Origin: a virus
UHGV virus genome: UHGV-1448156
DNA: 36,860 bases
Strand: one strand, 5' to 3'
The notes under the pieces are model-generated. The model was not told where the DNA came from. It ran no database searches and saw only the letters and a list, made by a program, of their open reading frames with translations. This document shows positions 4,303 to 24,155 of this stretch, in pieces. Positions within the stretch are counted from its first letter, which is position 1; the number at the start of each line of letters is the position of its first letter. The position numbers and the translations under genes are program-made.

Positions 4303-5054
4303 CAGTTCACCCCGTCTGTGTTGCTTCCGCCTCGCTGAACCCCGCTGTGCGTGTGCGTATCATCAATTGACTTGCCGTTAGCTTTAACGGTACCGATAAA
4401 CTCGACAGCGCCGGTGATTTTGGATGCAACTCCAGAAGCAACAGACCCCACCATTCCACCCAGCCAGGACAGTAGCCCGTGAATGGTTACTTTCGCCGAG
4501 AAGTCGGCCAGCGGGGTAACTACATCCAGACCGCCAGGCGCTACGATTTTAATTTTCTGCGTATCCGGATTAAGGTCGATGTACGTACTTCCATCAACAC
4601 TTCGAAGCTGCGCCGACGTGGTGCTGACATTCTTAATTTTGTTGGGCTGAGATATTTGACCCACTGAGCAGGTGGCGTCGGACAGGTCATGTATGCGGTC
4701 GTCGACAGGTTCCTGCACTCCACCGTTTTGCCAGAAGAAATCAATACAGCGGTCTTGAAACTTAAGTTCGCACTCATCGCCGGGGCTCACCGGCAACGTT
4801 AAAGTAACTCCCCCGGCCGTTGGGAATACCACGGGAACATCCACCAGCAGCGGGTAAGGTTTTGTCACCCGGTTACCATCGTTATCGATCTCAACGTAAC
4901 GGATAGCAGGCTGCACAACCGCCGTAACCGCGTCAGGATCGAATGACTGAATAATGCCAGGCAAAGCGACGCGGATCTGGTTCTTTGTTGTTTCCCGTTC
5001 AGATTTGAATGTTTCAGCAAGGTCGCCGCTGCGGGTCTGGTCAGATACTGCCAT
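4302..5054 (-). CDS. Baseplate spike/assembly protein (gpV / Mu gp45-like)
   Basis: 250 aa; ATG 5054 with SD TGGAG; first gene after the cassette terminator. Confidence 0.55.
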   Translation of the reverse strand: MAVSDQTRSGDLAETFKSERETTKNQIRVALPGIIQSFDPDAVTAVVQPAIRYVEIDNDGNRVTKPYPLLVDVPVVFPTAGGVTLTLPVSPGDECELKFQDRCIDFFWQNGGVQEPVDDRIHDLSDATCSVGQISQPNKIKNVSTTSAQLRSVDGSTYIDLNPDTQKIKIVAPGGLDVVTPLADFSAKVTIHGLLSWLGGMVGSVASGVASKITGAVEFIGTVKANGKSIDDTHTHSGVQRGGSNTDGVN

Positions 5055-18355: not shown

Positions 18356-19673
18356 TCTCTATGTCCTCGTCGGTAATGGATGCCCCGATGCCGGTTACGT
18401 CAGAATTTTCGCGCAAATCGGTCATAGCGGCTTTCAGTGTCATCAGACCATCACCCAGCGCCGTACTGATTGCGTTGGTAGTGTTTAACGCCACCGTTGA
18501 GCGATCGACATCAGACATTTGCCAGAGCGGGTTAAACTCAAACGTGAAATCGTCCGGCAGCGGCTTACCGAGTTCCGAGCGGTGCATAATGTCCAGTATC
18601 CGGCGCATCGGCATCCGTAAGCGGCGCTCCTGCAATGAGCTCACCCGGTCGTAATAGTTGGCAAGATCTGCATCACCGGTAGAAAATCCTTTCGGGGACT
18701 GTCCGAACAACCGCACCAGTGGAATACCAACAGCGCCACTAATCTGTTCTGCAAACTGCGATAGGATGTCATCCAGACCACTGAAGCTGTACTGATGCGT
18801 TTCAAACTTATCCCGCGAGTCCATGAGCGTCATGCCTTCATTGCTCTGGAACTGGCGGATCAGGTCGATGTTCTTCAGCAACGCTTCGAAAGCTGGGCCA
18901 CCAAGCGCGATAATCTCGCGCAGCTTCTCCACGCTGTAGGTGCGCAGATGCGCTTTGTAGACCAGCTGAGCCGCGCCGACAGTGGCGCTGTCGAACGCAG
19001 TAAGCCGATCCCAGATTCGCTCTACAACCGACATTCCCCATTCGTTCTCGGTCATCTTCTGCTGGAATGGCAGCGTGACGCCATCGAAGCGAATCAGGCG
19101 GCTGTGATGGATGCGCCAGGCCGGGATGCCCGTTGCAGTGGTCACCACGTCGTAAAACTCAGGTTTGCCGAGATCTGGCCCCATCTCTTTAATGCGGCGG
19201 GTCAGGGCCGGGTTAATCATCCAGCGGTCGAGCGGGAGAATGCCCTTAAACTTGCCTTCTCCAATGGTTTCGAGCCGCAGCGGGGTCATTGGTGCCTGCC
19301 CCTCGATCATGATGAAGCCGACCGCGCCGCCGTAGAGGCGAGACCATTTCAGCACGTCGTTCAGCGCATCCCAGATCTGCAACTCATCAAGTTGTGATTC
19401 GAGAATGCCGCGATCTTTTGCATCAATTTCCGAAGTGATGCGAATGCCTTTGCGGGTCATATCATCCGGGATAGCGTCGACCGCTTCGCCGATGATCCAG
19501 GACGAACGATAGGACCATTCCACCAGCATGCGGTTGCGGCTGGTGAAGTTAGCCCGGTAGGTCGATGCTGAGTGCTGGTTAGGCGTCTGCATCCCCACGC
19601 GGGCGACAAAGTTCTCATATCCATCAGCGGTGGCCTGTGCCGTTCGCCGCGTGGCTTGTTTGTTTCGTGCCAT
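18204..19673 (-). CDS. Portal protein
   Basis: 489 aa immediately downstream of the large terminase; start overlaps terminase stop. Confidence 0.7.
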   Translation of the reverse strand: MARNKQATRRTAQATADGYENFVARVGMQTPNQHSASTYRANFTSRNRMLVEWSYRSSWIIGEAVDAIPDDMTRKGIRITSEIDAKDRGILESQLDELQIWDALNDVLKWSRLYGGAVGFIMIEGQAPMTPLRLETIGEGKFKGILPLDRWMINPALTRRIKEMGPDLGKPEFYDVVTTATGIPAWRIHHSRLIRFDGVTLPFQQKMTENEWGMSVVERIWDRLTAFDSATVGAAQLVYKAHLRTYSVEKLREIIALGGPAFEALLKNIDLIRQFQSNEGMTLMDSRDKFETHQYSFSGLDDILSQFAEQISGAVGIPLVRLFGQSPKGFSTGDADLANYYDRVSSLQERRLRMPMRRILDIMHRSELGKPLPDDFTFEFNPLWQMSDVDRSTVALNTTNAISTALGDGLMTLKAAMTDLRENSDVTGIGASITDEDIENAEDEAPPGIGELGDKPPESPGGDPISNEPTADSAGGRGYRKWALRWFKR

Positions 19674-21295
19674 CAGGCCTGTCTCCCTAGCAGCTCCCAG
19701 ATATTCAGGGCTGAATTCATTGGCGCGTAGCTGATCATCACCGAGTCGGCAAGGTTTGGCGACCGGGTTCCATCAGGCTGTTTATCAATAACGATTTTCC
19801 CCACACCATTAATGGAATAGGTCGGCTGCGAAAGCTCGATGATGAGTTTATCTTTGAGTGCCATGCTACTGCTGATTGAGATGATTTCGTCCGGGTTGTA
19901 ATCCATACCTTCAACCACGGCGCGCCAGGTATTCTGAAAAAGTTTACGTAACCGCCACCAGCTCTGGGCTTTGGCGTTAGCGAAGAAGTCCTTGTTCAGG
20001 CGGGCGGCCTGTCCGTTGTCACCGCGCACCGCTTCGTCGTCCGGATCAAATACCGCGCCACTACCTCGAAACGGTGTGGCGAGTATTGACGGTCGGCGCG
20101 CAGCGTTACGCAGTTCGTTGATAGCGCGTGCATCGCCGCGAACGCCAGCGCCCAGCCCGTCCTCGTCAAAGCGAAACTCTTCGAGGTTGTCCTGTTCGCA
20201 AAAACCGAAGACCTTCTCGACGGACTGATAAATGTCGCTACCCACACCAGACCATTCCCGCACATTTTCCAGGAGGAAGCCATGACGGGTGGAAAAGGCA
20301 TTTTTGTCCCTGCCTTCATCAGCGACATCCATCGCGCCAAGTCGTTTGCCTGTTGGCTGGATACCCAGTTTGATATGCGCATCAACGGCAGCCTGTACCC
20401 ATTCGGATGGAATCAGGACGCCTTCCGCTGATGCGCTGTAGTTCAGATCAAGTTCCTGTGCCACCACCACCGGATTATCGATTTTCTCGCATTCCCTGCG
20501 ATACCACTCTTCATCCTTGCGAGGATCATCCCGCCAGTGGAATGTGAATACCGGTATCTTCCCGCCGTGACGCTTCTGCGCGAACGGGTTCGCCATGCCG
20601 TTAACCGAACTCAGGTCGATACGGCAACGCGTCGTTTGTGACAACGCCGCATCAATCAGCAGAGGACGCTGAAGGAATGCAGCCTCATCAACCAGATAAA
20701 GCGTGGTACGGTCACCACGACCAATATTATCGCCAGCCTCGCCTTTGATAACGGCACCAGTTTCAGGAAACTCAACACGCATATATGGCGCGTGCTTCTT
20801 CTCGCTCCACGAACCGCGAAACTCTACAGGTAGTGTTTCCACGAACTTGCGCGCCTTCCAGAACAATGCTTTCGGGTCACCGGTGCTGTCGACGTATTCC
20901 TCTTTACGGGAGCCGAAACCGATAACCATTTCTTTGTTGAAGAGACAAAGCGAGCAGGCCAGTCCGATCGCGGTCCAACTGAGCCCCATTTCACGGGATT
21001 TTTCGGTAATACCATTCTCCCGATTACCCCAGCGTTCCATAATCCAGTGGATCCACTCCTCCTGCTTAGGGAAGAGTAAAAACGGAATGGTCACCGGCAG
21101 GCCATAATCAATATTACGCGGGTCCGTTGTCATGCCCCAGTCGATGATGAACTGAGCCGGGTTGGTTCGGTAAAACTGTTTTAGTGCTGGCAATATTTCA
21201 GGGTTCTGGCGAATGCGCTGTAAGCGTTCCATCCGCCATTCAAAAACCATCTGGTAATCAGGATGTTTAAAATCGAAGGGGAATGGTAACGGCAT
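19673..21295 (-). CDS. Terminase large subunit
   Basis: 540 aa; N-terminal ATPase region with acidic LYLVDEAAF motif; follows the small subunit. Confidence 0.8.
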
Positions 21296-21297
21296 AC

Positions 21298-21849
21298 TTA
21301 GCCCATCATTTTTCTATACGCCTCTGCAGCCTGCTCCGGCGTTAAGTTGGTAATTTCTGTTCTGACTGGTCCTCCGTCAGCACCAGTCACTTCATTTTTG
21401 ACGTTGTCTTTAAACGCCTGAACAGAAACATGACGCCCGAGCAACTCAAGGTTTTTAACCTTATCAGGCCATTTGATTTTCTTCAGGAGAGCAGCACTAT
21501 CTGCGGATACCATCTCCACGACATCCATTCCTGATAGCGTTGTGCGCCATACCTTAGGCCAGTCTTTAATGGGCTTTAGCTCACCGTTTTGCAGGAGAAT
21601 GTCGAGCACATCCATCTGGTCGATTTCAATAAGGCGATTAAGCACATATTCTGCATTAATACCAACAAGATCATTGCGTTGCGCTTTCAGTTCGGCGATT
21701 CTGAATTGGATGTCAGGTTTTGACATGTTTTCGGATGCGGTACGGTTAGCTGTCTTTGCGCTGTACCCCGCCCGAATAGCCGCTTGTGTGGCGTTTAAAT
21801 CGATGAGGTACTCGCGACAGAACATCTCTTGTTTGTCGGTGAGTGCCAT
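21298..21849 (-). CDS. Terminase small subunit
   Basis: 183 aa; N-terminus [30 protein letters not shown] is typical of small terminase DNA-binding domains. Confidence 0.65.
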
Positions 21850-21873
21850 AGTTTTCTCTAGAGGATTTCTTTA

Positions 21874-22110
21874 ATGAACTCAAAGCAAATTTTTTACCGA
21901 AATACAGGTCATGATAATGAAACTTATATATTCCTGGACAAATTGGACAATGGCTCCTACCAAGTCAGGGCTGGTCATTCGTCACCTGTGAGCCATTTTG
22001 AATGGGAGGGTGATGAAACCATTCAGACAGTGGAAGAGTTTCTAGGTTCTAACCCATCATATACTGAACGTGTTCATCAACTAATTTCTGAGTTTGAAGC
22101 AGAATCGTAA
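21874..22110 (+). CDS. Hypothetical 78-aa acidic protein
   Basis: ATG 21874 with AGAGGA upstream; only 24 bp from the divergent small terminase start; antisense to the late transcript. Confidence 0.35.
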   Translation: MNSKQIFYRNTGHDNETYIFLDKLDNGSYQVRAGHSSPVSHFEWEGDETIQTVEEFLGSNPSYTERVHQLISEFEAES

Positions 22111-22246
22111 TCACCACCCAAGCGACTCAGCTGATATCTAGTTCATCATTACTAGGACTAAAAGTAGATTCCTGACATTGAGAATCTCTTTATCCGCTTG
22201 TGGGGATATCAGTTAAGTTATCCCGTGTAGGGTATAAGCCATTGTC

Positions 22247-22269
22247 GAGACCACTCATTGAATGGTCTC
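22247..22269. repeat. Hairpin A: GAGACCA-CTCATTGAA-TGGTCTC
   Basis: 7-bp stem with 9-nt loop; direct reading. Confidence 0.5.
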
Positions 22270-22441
22270 TGCAATAACCGATGTCTTTCCATCAGTCCGC
22301 CACCACAAAGAATCTTTTTTGCCATAAGGCAGGAGGTTCATCTTTCAGTGGCTGCCAGTGTTATTTCCCCACTTACTGGCTTGGGTTGTTTCGCTGTACT
22401 GCCGTAACTGGTTACCCAGAATAAATTCCGGTTTCATTATC

Positions 22442-22464
22442 GAAGCCCCTCAATGAAGGGCTTC
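22442..22464. repeat. Hairpin B: GAAGCCC-CTCAATGAA-GGGCTTC
   Basis: Same architecture as hairpin A; loop differs at one base, stems differ but remain complementary. Confidence 0.5.
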
Positions 22465-22572
22465 TGTAATGCCTTACTTCATGAAATAATTTCATCCGGG
22501 TTTACGCAGAAAACCTTTCACTTTATGTGCATTATGAAAATGCCAATTGCGGCATATCTCTGGGAAACTTAA

Positions 22573-23133
22573 ATGATCCATACCGTACACTTCATGACAG
22601 ATGTGACAGTTGCTTCTGTATCCAGCCTTATGGATGTTTGCCTCAAAGCGATATCAAGCCCTAACCAACCAGCCTCTGAGATCAGGATTTACATCTCTAG
22701 TAAAGGTGGAGATACCGTTGCAGGTTTTACCGCATACAACTTTCTTAAGTCTCTTCCTGTAAAGGTGAAGACACATAACCTTAGTAACGTGGAATCTATA
22801 GCAAATGTTATTTTCATGGCTGGATCTGAGCGGTTTGCTAATCCTCTCTCGCGATTTTTATTACATCCTTTACATTGGGGATTTGCCGCCCCACAAGCAG
22901 ATCACCTCAGGCTTAGGGAATGGGCGGCATGTCTGGATGACGACTTGCAAAGATTTGTGCAGGTGATGAATATCGAGGCTCTCGCTGTAGCCCCAGATGA
23001 GCAAATTGACTGGGCTAATTTGATCACTTCTGCAACCATCATTGATCCGGGAAGGGCCACCGAGTTGGGTATGATCCAGAATGTCGAGGCTGCAACCATA
23101 CCCACAGATTCGATCAGGTGGTGGGTTCTGTAA
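22573..23133 (+). CDS. ClpP-fold (S14/crotonase-like) peptidase homologue, 186 aa
   Basis: IRIYISSKGGDTVAGFTAY...VESIANVIFMAGSERFANPLSRFLLHPL aligns with ClpP YINSPGGVITAGMSIY...[30 protein letters not shown] from memory; candidate Ser and His retained. Opposite strand to all flanking late genes. Confidence 0.6.
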   Translation: MIHTVHFMTDVTVASVSSLMDVCLKAISSPNQPASEIRIYISSKGGDTVAGFTAYNFLKSLPVKVKTHNLSNVESIANVIFMAGSERFANPLSRFLLHPLHWGFAAPQADHLRLREWAACLDDDLQRFVQVMNIEALAVAPDEQIDWANLITSATIIDPGRATELGMIQNVEAATIPTDSIRWWVL

Positions 23134-23160
23134 CATTTTGAATCCTCCATAAGTGCGGGC

Positions 23161-23418
23161 TTATTGGCCCGCTTGTTTCTTTACAGCTTGCCTAATATCT
23201 GCCTTATCCCGGTTGCACTGCCCAAGCGCTGATAGGAGACTGACGTTTAAATCTAGGCTCTGGCCCCACGTCAGGTTGTCAGGGATTTCCGGTTGCGGGG
23301 TGTCAGCCGTCAGGCTGGCCGGTAACGGGACTACCGGCACTTTGACGTAGACCGTTCGCGAATTGTTGCAGCCGCTTAACTGCGCCAGCAGGGACATGGC
23401 GATTAGTGCAATCATCAT
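23161..23418 (-). CDS. Rz1-like o-spanin lipoprotein
   Basis: Out-of-frame ORF overlapping the Rz 3' half; lipobox LSGC followed by Pro-rich sequence; start at 23418 or 23415. Confidence 0.5.
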   Translation of the reverse strand: MMIALIAMSLLAQLSGCNNSRTVYVKVPVVPLPASLTADTPQPEIPDNLTWGQSLDLNVSLLSALGQCNRDKADIRQAVKKQAGQ

Positions 23419-23695
23419 TCGCAACAGCAACCCGGATATCAGCCGAGGCTCCCGATGCGTCCAGTGCGATCTGCTCTTTTGCATGCTGGTTAGCCTCTAT
23501 AACTGTATTGATGATTTGCAGTGATTGCAGAACGTTACGGGTAATGGCAGTTGCTGATTCAGCATTTCGTACAGCCTCATCAGCACGCTCCTTTTCGTGC
23601 TGATATTTGCTGTAGTAATGCCCAGCAGACCAGATGAAGGAACCAATGACGGTAACAACGAAGGCAACAATAACCAGCTTATATCTCAGCTTCAT
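23303..23695 (-). CDS. Rz-like i-spanin
   Basis: 130 aa, N-terminal transmembrane helix then helical periplasmic domain; starts inside the 3' end of R. Confidence 0.55.
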   Translation of the reverse strand: MKLRYKLVIVAFVVTVIGSFIWSAGHYYSKYQHEKERADEAVRNAESATAITRNVLQSLQIINTVIEANQHAKEQIALDASGASADIRVAVANDDCTNRHVPAGAVKRLQQFANGLRQSAGSPVTGQPDG

Positions 23696-24155
23696 TTACT
23701 ACCCCACCAGCTTTTTTAAATCGGGCAATCAGGTCACCGATTTTATGTTCATACTGACCGTAACCTGCACCAGGTAACGACGCCCAGATATTGCTGCAAC
23801 GGTCGATTGCCTGACGAATACTGCCGCGGTCAATCATCGGTAAAGCACCACGCTCTTTAATCTGCTGCAGAGCTACAGCGTCCTGGCTTTCTGGAGAAAA
23901 ATCTTTCAGGCCAAGCTGTTTACGGTAAGCATCCCACCAGCGTGAAAGAAGCTGGTAACGTCCGGCGGCTGTTGATTTGAGTTTTGGGTTTAGCGTGACA
24001 AGTTTGCGAGGGTGATCGGAGTAATCAGTGAACAGTTCGCCACCAACAATAACATCATAACCGTGGTTACGTGTCGGTTGTCGCCCGTTATCCGTTCCTT
24101 CTGACCATGCCAGCATATCGAGGAACGCCTTACGTTGATTATTGATTTCCACCAT
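23679..24155 (-). CDS. R: Endolysin (lambda R-type lytic transglycosylase)
   Basis: 158 aa, [24 protein letters not shown]..., near-identical to lambda R as I recall it. Confidence 0.9.

Follow-up and report, generated by a model that had tools for sequence, protein, structure and literature searches.

We analyzed a stretch of viral DNA of 36,860 nucleotides, the UHGV virus genome UHGV-1448156 (hereafter the window), and found that its 462-bp region at positions 22111-22572 carries two copies of a covarying hairpin. These hairpins, A (22247-22269, GAGACCA-CTCATTGAA-TGGTCTC) and B (22442-22464, GAAGCCC-CTCAATGAA-GGGCTTC), are paralogous copies of one 41-nt element, and their flanks match as well. 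The element is a repeated intergenic palindromic hairpin at cassette boundaries, a known sort of feature, although this element has no entry in Rfam. It folds on the sense strand of the phage late operon and recurs, at the ends of genes, in the gap between the lysis and terminase genes of many temperate phages of Enterobacterales.

An earlier note on this DNA, made from the letters alone, had given the same positions and sequences for the two hairpins, which we confirmed, and had described them as 7-bp stems with nearly identical 9-nt loops on the plus strand. We observed that the structure is larger than this and folds on the minus strand. Copy A (22238..22278, minus) reads GUUAUUG-CA-GAGACCAUUC-AAU-GAGUGGUCUC-GA-CAAUGGC, and copy B (22433..22473, minus), a rare allele, reads GGCAUUA-CA-GAAGCCCUUC-AUU-GAGGGGCUUC-GA-UAAUGAA when written with its flanking bases (core CAUUA...UAAUG). 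The general pattern on the minus strand is 5'-(C/U)AUUR-CA, followed by a 9-10 bp stem with a small loop, followed by GA-YAAUG-3'. On this strand the stem of each hairpin is 10 bp long, with the plus-strand "loop" adding U.G, U-A and C-G pairs (UUC/GAG) around a triloop, and a 2x2 internal loop (CA/GA) together with an outer stem of 4-7 bp ((C/U)AUUR/YAAUG) lengthens the structure to 41 nt. The likeness of the two loops was real in that their 9-mers agree at 8 of 9 positions; however, since the central triplet varies freely across the family, what the copies share is the conserved UUC/GAG top of the stem and not a loop.

The window contains perfect 7-bp hairpins with loops of 3-9 nt at a rate of 0.87 per kb, and two such hairpins fall within 462 bp with P~0.05 (shuffles). 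Two 9-mers match at 8 of 9 positions by chance with P~1e-4, and the loop 9-mer motif is absent elsewhere in the 36.9-kb window. A covariance model search of the window with the filters off likewise recovered no copies other than A and B. On the minus strand, the stretch 22180-22480, with both hairpins in it, gives an unusually stable fold (z=-6.1).

Segment 22189-22480 of the window belongs to a widespread block: more than 200 phage records, among them HK97, HK022, mEp234, Kapi1, Sf6, HK620 and P22-like Salmonella phages, match it at 86-99% identity, and DNA matching the 462-bp query is present in 2279 of 5426 complete E. coli genomes. The same two slots hold the element in 126 related loci, where its alleles differ. 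The alleles of copy A are GAGGCCA/UGGUCUC (the majority, with one G.U pair), GAGACCA/UGGUCUC, GGGGCCA/UGGCCUC and AAAGCCA...UGGCUUU (with a 6-nt loop), and the usual allele of copy B is AAGCCCAUC-UACG-GGUGGGCUU. In a set of 28 distinct variants, which was selected with a pairing filter and from which we built a covariance model (R1), 98% of cells are paired and 8 of 14 pairs have changed on both sides; none of 500 shuffles reached these values. When RNAalifold was run on the entire block (29 distinct copies), it found no informative covariation outside the two hairpins, as the sequence is too conserved.

We also scanned IMG/VR with the pattern CATTACA-7N-WTC-N{3,6}-GRK-7N-GATAATG, in which the flanks and the top of the stem are fixed and the complementarity of the arms is left free. 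The scan gave at least 127 occurrences at no fewer than 120 loci; here and below, all counts from it are among the matches listed. These include at least 72 distinct sequences and at least 44 distinct arm pairs. The arms pair at all seven positions in 115 of the 127 matches (chance of full pairing: (6/16)^7, ~0.001), at six of seven in 11 and at one of seven, a chance-like value, in a single match. The central loop triplet varies freely (ACU, AGU, AUU, AAU, CCU and others). These results show that the lower seven stem pairs are free to vary provided that pairing holds, that the top is usually UUC/GAG and closes a loop of 3-6 nt, and that the pairing of the element is under selection. The earlier note had read covariation between two copies as the mark of a selected structure and had suggested a covariance-model search for further changes in relatives. 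With 28 variants and at least 127 scan occurrences the case is far stronger than two copies could make it, and the stems covary widely in relatives.

Searches for a previously described family gave no match. A cmscan of 21000-24000 at E up to 10 found no Rfam family for the region, its sole hit being a chance match to Ocean-V that lies outside it, and a scan for tRNA and tmRNA genes found none. A description of the hairpin was found neither in Rfam nor in the literature reached, which did not extend to the ES18, HK620, HK97 and Sf6 genome papers. Scanning genome contigs with a 17-mer proved too unspecific, as it returned chance matches in unrelated phyla.

Three features of the variants assign the fold to one strand. 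Wobble pairs are one-sided (51 G.U vs 4 A.C in the 28-variant set; 102 G.U vs 4 A.C in the scan), the majority allele of copy A is a stable allele that contains a G.U pair, and the fourth stem pair of copy A runs through a series of A-U in the window, G.U in the majority allele and G-C in P22. We therefore conclude that the fold forms on the minus strand, the one with the late-operon sense. Folding energies for copies A and B are -22.0 and -21.0 kcal/mol on the minus strand vs -15.3 and -17.3 kcal/mol on the plus strand, and with model R1 their minus-strand scores are 61.4 and 55.5 bits, as against ~15 bits on the plus strand (A: 15.1). RNA folding is the simplest reading of this strand asymmetry.

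The position of the element in phage genomes is equally regular. An open reading frame (ORF) of at least 40 codons stops 0-15 nt upstream of it in 94 of the 127 matches, with a peak at 0-4 nt. The proteins encoded upstream fall into at least 37 clusters and those encoded downstream into at least 64; many of the downstream genes are unknowns, and others encode HNH endonucleases, ParB-like proteins or small terminases that match at least 5 PHROGs. In relatives of the window, the ORF upstream of copy B ends in any of 26 distinct C-terminal tails, of about nine visibly unrelated types, and its stop codon lies 2 nt upstream of copy B in 38 loci. Every annotated phage that we inspected carries the element between the lysis genes and terS or other packaging genes. 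In P22 (NC_002371), rha is followed by a 129-nt spacer and by copy A at 40309-40349, and pid starts at 40357, 8 nt past copy A. HK97 has both copies (38661-38700 and 38856-38896) between gp73 and gp74, phi80 has the element (44300-44336) 7 nt after the rha stop, the Pectobacterium myovirus ZF40 has it 1 nt after the stop of a mom-like gene, and Fels-1 has it between Rz and terS. It likewise lies between lysis and packaging genes in Stx phage 2851, mEp460 and E. coli prophages. From these placements, we conclude that the element occupies a gene-end position in the lysis-to-terminase gap, often once per small gene.

Some individual loci deserve mention. An extra copy (stem AAGCGUC/GGGCGCUU) is present in the related locus L024 at 5005-5044 (+), between the Q antiterminator and holin genes; an 89-aa ORF directly precedes it, and shortly after it comes a 172-aa ORF that by eye resembles an HNH/NUMOD-type homing endonuclease. 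P22 orf25 (40329-40406; L125 1830-1907), as annotated, starts within the copy A loop and extends into the region of the pid terminator; it is unlikely to be a real gene. A 37-mer in a record named Elizabethkingia phage EKP1 (OM284015.1, 35846-35882) is identical to that of phi80 and Klebsiella prophages; the element may have spread over a great distance, or else the host given for this record is doubtful.

The two copies also coincide with the places where related genomes differ. Homology breakpoints among 124 relatives cluster at or within them. Sense-strand inserts of 129-1317 bp that carry accessory genes (morons) enter in relatives at 22279/22280 of the window, on the border of the spacer with copy A. 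Several of these morons own canonical terminators 10-40 nt upstream of the element, which is still present after them. Elsewhere, pairs of copies bracket 273-844 nt spacers filled with a sense ORF or two. The only copy in phage 2851 is a hybrid that joins a B-type left flank to an A-type right flank, which is the product that a deletion between the repeats is expected to leave, and locus L115 has a hybrid copy with a broken stem. One and the same 37-mer is present in phi80, mEp390 and Klebsiella prophages, and an identical 37-mer is found in E. coli, Klebsiella and Pectobacterium phages.

The copy B allele of the window (a 39-mer) is rare: it accompanies a ClpP-like gene and the 100-nt region upstream of that gene in 7 of 5426 complete E. 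coli genomes and occurs without the gene in 5 others, where its contexts differ; in strain ECONIH5, for example, it lies between Rha and a metallopeptidase gene. In strain ECCTRSRTH03 the stem is GAGTCAC/GTGGCTC, with three compensated pairs, and the remaining DNA is 98.7% identical. The slot that the ClpP-like gene fills holds rha or other genes in relatives, and in the window this antisense moron has replaced the usual upstream gene of copy B. The bases AAGTA beside copy B, together with the A at the first position of the element, look like a stop-codon relic of the replaced late-sense gene; the flank of copy B in the window resembles the ...GAAGTAGCC flank found upstream of copy B in relatives.

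Two kinds of gene at these slots showed variation of their own. The commonest sense insert at the copy A slot encodes a protein of 118-126 aa (MNDQQIEKEIVEKGK...) whose middle is hypervariable between loci (inserts at L002 382-762 and 997-1497, from phage Huey, and in L025, L014, L006 and L015). This protein is annotated as "anti-CRISPR protein" in phage Huey, and the matching stretch of Klebsiella phage phiKp_30 is annotated as "Gp49 family protein". A gene that ends in ...AEAKAK and a stop codon before copy B (L001 ~1080-1130 and relatives) varies in its number of GCAAAA hexanucleotide repeats. The resulting tails (...AKAK, ...AKAKVK and ...AKAKAKAKVK) reflect a coding tandem repeat that expands and contracts.

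We propose, with a probability of about 0.5, that the element acts as an intercistronic mRNA hairpin for 3'-end protection or processing and serves also as a joint for the exchange of accessory cassettes. According to this proposal, the hairpin would form within the long late mRNA, punctuate it between cistrons and act as a barrier to 3' exonucleases, as a processing site for an endonuclease, or as both. The stability and expression of the accessory cassettes would thereby be set apart from those of the downstream packaging genes, and the conserved flanks could supply short homology for the gain, loss and swapping of cassettes between phages.

Known intercistronic hairpins offer partial parallels for such a role. 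The repetitive extragenic palindromic (REP) sequences and bacterial interspersed mosaic elements (BIME) of E. coli are also imperfect palindromes of ~35-40 nt located intercistronically or 3' in polycistronic mRNAs; REPs act as barriers to 3' exonucleases, and those near a stop codon affect expression of the upstream gene. However, their sequences are unrelated to those described here, a REP has a conserved stem whereas this element combines conserved AU-rich flanks with a variable stem, and the element is confined to one phage region. The RNase III hairpins of T7 are likewise intercistronic, contain an internal loop and recur after successive genes of a long transcript, but they have no sequence relation to the element, whose lower stem is only 4-7 bp and whose cleavage is a candidate activity.

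Several points weigh against the proposal. All of its mechanistic steps are drawn from the anatomy and position of the element, the set of 28 variants was chosen with a filter for pairing, and the scan counts describe the matches listed. RNase III calls for about two helical turns, and the element provides 4-7 bp, a 2x2 internal loop and 9-10 bp, which is borderline in length, with a lower stem that is short for a classical site. The stems are hypervariable even between loci that are 98.7% identical, which a pure exonuclease barrier does not predict; this could result from recombination between alleles or from template-switch "correction" of a DNA quasi-palindrome. Copy B of the window has no late-sense gene upstream and protects nothing obvious here. 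Finally, conservation of the CA/GA internal loop and of the flanks hints that some specific partner binds there, and the proposal names none.

The main rival is that the element is purely a DNA recombination linker, resembling a boundary sequence, that mediates the homologous or relaxed recombination by which accessory genes are shuffled; its pairing would be maintained by template-switch correction, and the RNA would have no function. This explanation accounts directly for the mosaic joints: for the clustering of breakpoints at the copies, the cassettes that copies bracket, the hybrids in phage 2851 and L115, the 37-mer common to E. coli, Klebsiella and Pectobacterium phages, and the hypervariable stems inside near-identical DNA. 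Template switching should, however, yield perfect Watson-Crick arms with no strand preference, whereas wobbles are common, one of them is the stable state of the majority allele of copy A, and in both variant sets almost all are late-sense G.U. The mismatched CA/GA internal loop is in no case "corrected". The element is always oriented with the operon, a position after the stop codon is not needed for recombination, and the homology shared on each side of the variable core amounts to only ~7 nt. We therefore consider a linker without an RNA role unlikely, with a chance well below that of the intercistronic hairpin.

Boundary elements of this general kind have precedents. The promoter-early stem-loops (PeSL) of T4-type phages, which are composite promoter and terminator motifs (PMC2839356, PMC4122927), are also short stem-loop motifs that are repeated in a hyperplastic region, flank small variable ORFs and bound indels between relatives. 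In contrast, the element described here has neither a promoter-like site nor a U-tract, its stems covary, and its phages are temperate lambdoid and related ones. Conserved boundary or linker sequences were proposed for module exchange in lambdoid phages (Susskind and Botstein 1978; Clark et al. 2001 on HK620, both as cited in PMC3029335); as these are outlined in that citation, they resemble the element in being short, conserved and located at gene boundaries with mosaic joints, and HK620 itself carries the block of the window. On the same outline they differ in kind, since the boundary sequences are a matter of DNA homology and the element is a covarying, strand-specific hairpin.

A more ambitious possibility, to which we give somewhat less credence than to the linker, is that the lysis-to-terminase gap of temperate enterobacterial phages houses a dedicated cassette system for accessory genes, be they moron, defense or anti-defense genes. 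The hairpin would then be a site that a specific factor recognizes as folded RNA or single-stranded DNA, and it would both process or insulate the message of each cassette and direct the gain, loss and exchange of cassettes. If true, lambdoid phages would thus have their own equivalent of integron attC sites or of the PeSLs of T4.

Alternatively, the element may be an operator for an RNA-binding protein of phage or host that recognizes sequence and shape and controls the translation or stability of the next gene (often terS or an HNH gene), in the manner of phage translational operators. Invariant flanks and an invariant CA/GA loop beside freely varying stems suggest a recognition surface, the distance to the following start codon is usually 15-35 nt, and terS and HNH genes are among those that come next. 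We nevertheless regard an operator as improbable, given that the downstream genes form at least 64 unrelated clusters, that no single protein co-occurs with the element and that the next start is 70-170 nt away in the window and in P22-like phages. About as doubtful is a non-canonical transcriptional insulator, such as a pause hairpin or part of a factor-dependent terminator, that would shield the packaging genes in lysogens from transcription started at moron or lysis-region promoters and be read through by Q-modified polymerase. Consistent with insulation, the element keeps a constant position just upstream of the packaging module and follows accessory genes of which some, such as pid, are expressed from the prophage (pid is a published P22 moron; PMC3573128, PMC8835761). 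Against it, the element has no U-tract, coexists with true intrinsic terminators 10-40 nt upstream and is found as tandem copies between co-directional small genes.

A simple intrinsic terminator had already been discounted in the earlier note for want of a U-tract, and we reached the same result on both strands. The minus-strand hairpins are stable and G+C-rich (-21 to -22 kcal/mol), but each is followed by GAYAAUG and then by variable sequence, and our terminator scan flags neither of them. The only terminator-like sites that we found in 21700-23400 are that of the ClpP-like gene itself (23155-23172, +) and a weak plus-strand site at 22315-22336. A promoter scan of the same interval found no sigma-70-like site on either strand.

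We consider it very unlikely that the element is an integron-like cassette site, in which folded single-stranded DNA would be recombined by a site-specific recombinase. It does resemble attC in being a cassette-linked imperfect palindrome just past an ORF, with conserved ends, a variable center and a strand-specific fold. However, the attC consensus RYYYAAC...GTTRRRY is absent (the flanks are CATTACA...GATAATG), no integron integrase occurs in the contexts inspected, no dedicated recombinase is linked to the element, and neither target duplications nor an attI-like site were seen. The element is also smaller, at 37-41 nt, than attC sites, which measure 57-141 nt, and RNA folding is a more economical account than folding of single-stranded DNA. 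A resemblance of the flanking bases to CRISPR repeats, judged by eye, does not hold across the family, and STnc6030 is at a different locus.

Least likely of all, and largely refuted, are the roles that the earlier note had suggested: a cos/pac or terminase-binding site, a small RNA (sRNA), or the long 5' leader of the ClpP-like gene. The region does adjoin terS, and its minus-strand fold is strong (z=-6.1, as above). A packaging site is contradicted by the sharing of the element among phages with unrelated packaging systems, since the next gene may be a terS matching any of at least 5 PHROGs or another gene altogether, and by its distance from the cos ends (~840 bp from the HK97 genome end and ~1.8 kb from the phi80 cosQ); the pac site of P22 lies inside gene 3. 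For an sRNA gene, no promoter-like or terminator-like site was found, and the noncoding RNA tables of BTP1 list nothing at the homologous place, between rha (388358-388963) and pid (389225-389539). As for a leader, the unit that accompanies the ClpP-like gene in other genomes begins at 22435, and to the left of this unit strain ECCTRSRTH03 has a different gene. Because the co-travelling unit starts there, 22111-22432 is not a leader of this gene, and at most ~100 nt qualifies as one.

How mosaicism at phage gene boundaries arises is an old argument, between conserved linkers with homologous recombination on one side and random illegitimate joints with selection on the other. The element provides a concrete, readily recognized and strongly covarying gene-boundary feature in the most moron-rich slot of P22, HK97, HK022, phi80, Sf6, HK620, Stx phages and Fels-1. 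Because it is common in model phages and in E. coli genomes, the question becomes experimentally testable in tractable systems. For annotation, the element can mark accessory-gene slots, which are home to genes for defense, anti-defense and the manipulation of the host (pid among the last), and the structured RNA motifs of phage late operons gain a member that had not been listed.

The rest of the 462-bp region divides into four segments. Between the two copies lies a 154-bp non-coding spacer (22279..22432, minus), whose core of ~125 nt (22280-22405) is near-invariant across HK97-like, HK022-like and P22-like phages and in P22 begins at the rha stop codon. At the corresponding position, analogous loci have a small gene, and the spacer may be a fixed relic or an unrecognized element. 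As a decayed gene it had no intact homologue in a limited tblastn search against 12,330 ORFs from the ~250 related loci that we fetched, which returned read-through ORFs of the same block only. Downstream of copy A in the late-operon sense, alignments and the minus-strand fold define a conserved segment (22189..22237, minus) that contains a third small hairpin, GGGATA...TATCCC, at 22203-22224. The segment is ~82% identical in Stx phages; there, as in HK97 and in P22-like phages, it ends where the ribosome-binding region of the following gene lies. The left segment (22111..22188) is outside the widespread block and is common only to a few prophages that also have a plus-strand 78-aa ORF; BLAST coverage from 22111 onward is limited to a handful of E. 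coli genomes. The region upstream of the ClpP-like gene (22474..22572, +) travels with that gene in the 7 genomes and presumably holds its weak promoter and ribosome-binding site; no promoter-like site in it passed our consensus scan.

The earlier note had also stated that no ORF of any length fits this region. Short ORFs of up to 49 aa are in fact present on both strands, but none is conserved: a 28-aa minus-strand ORF has lost its ATG in 3 of 29 distinct homologues, and a 30-aa ORF and a plus-strand peptide are frameshifted in HK97 and P22. A reading of copy B as the last codons of Rha (ITKPIYGWA and a stop) failed as well, as the frame is open for only 10-31 codons and the true stop codons lie just upstream.

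The late operon of the window, which is of the lambdoid prophage type, runs on the minus strand in the order holin (24462-24139), lysozyme (24155-23679), Rz (23695-23303), hairpin region, terS (21849-21298, Pfam Terminase_2) and terL (21295-19673). Two antisense plus-strand genes interrupt this stretch. One is the ClpP-like accessory gene (22573-23133, +), whose match to Pfam CLP_protease (E=4.9e-12) covers only residues 31-111 of 186; this moron might act in defense or counter-defense. The other, taken from the ORF list, is the 78-aa ORF (21874-22110, +), which is divergent from terS and starts 24 bp from it. No Pfam family was found for its product, which is kept in a few prophages and is annotated as hypothetical protein WP_097365374.1 in strain EH01-18-04-A, and no obvious terminator follows the ORF ahead of the conserved block. 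The 540-aa product of terL (19673-21295, minus) matches no Pfam family at E up to 0.01 and is labelled TerL protein in the same strain.

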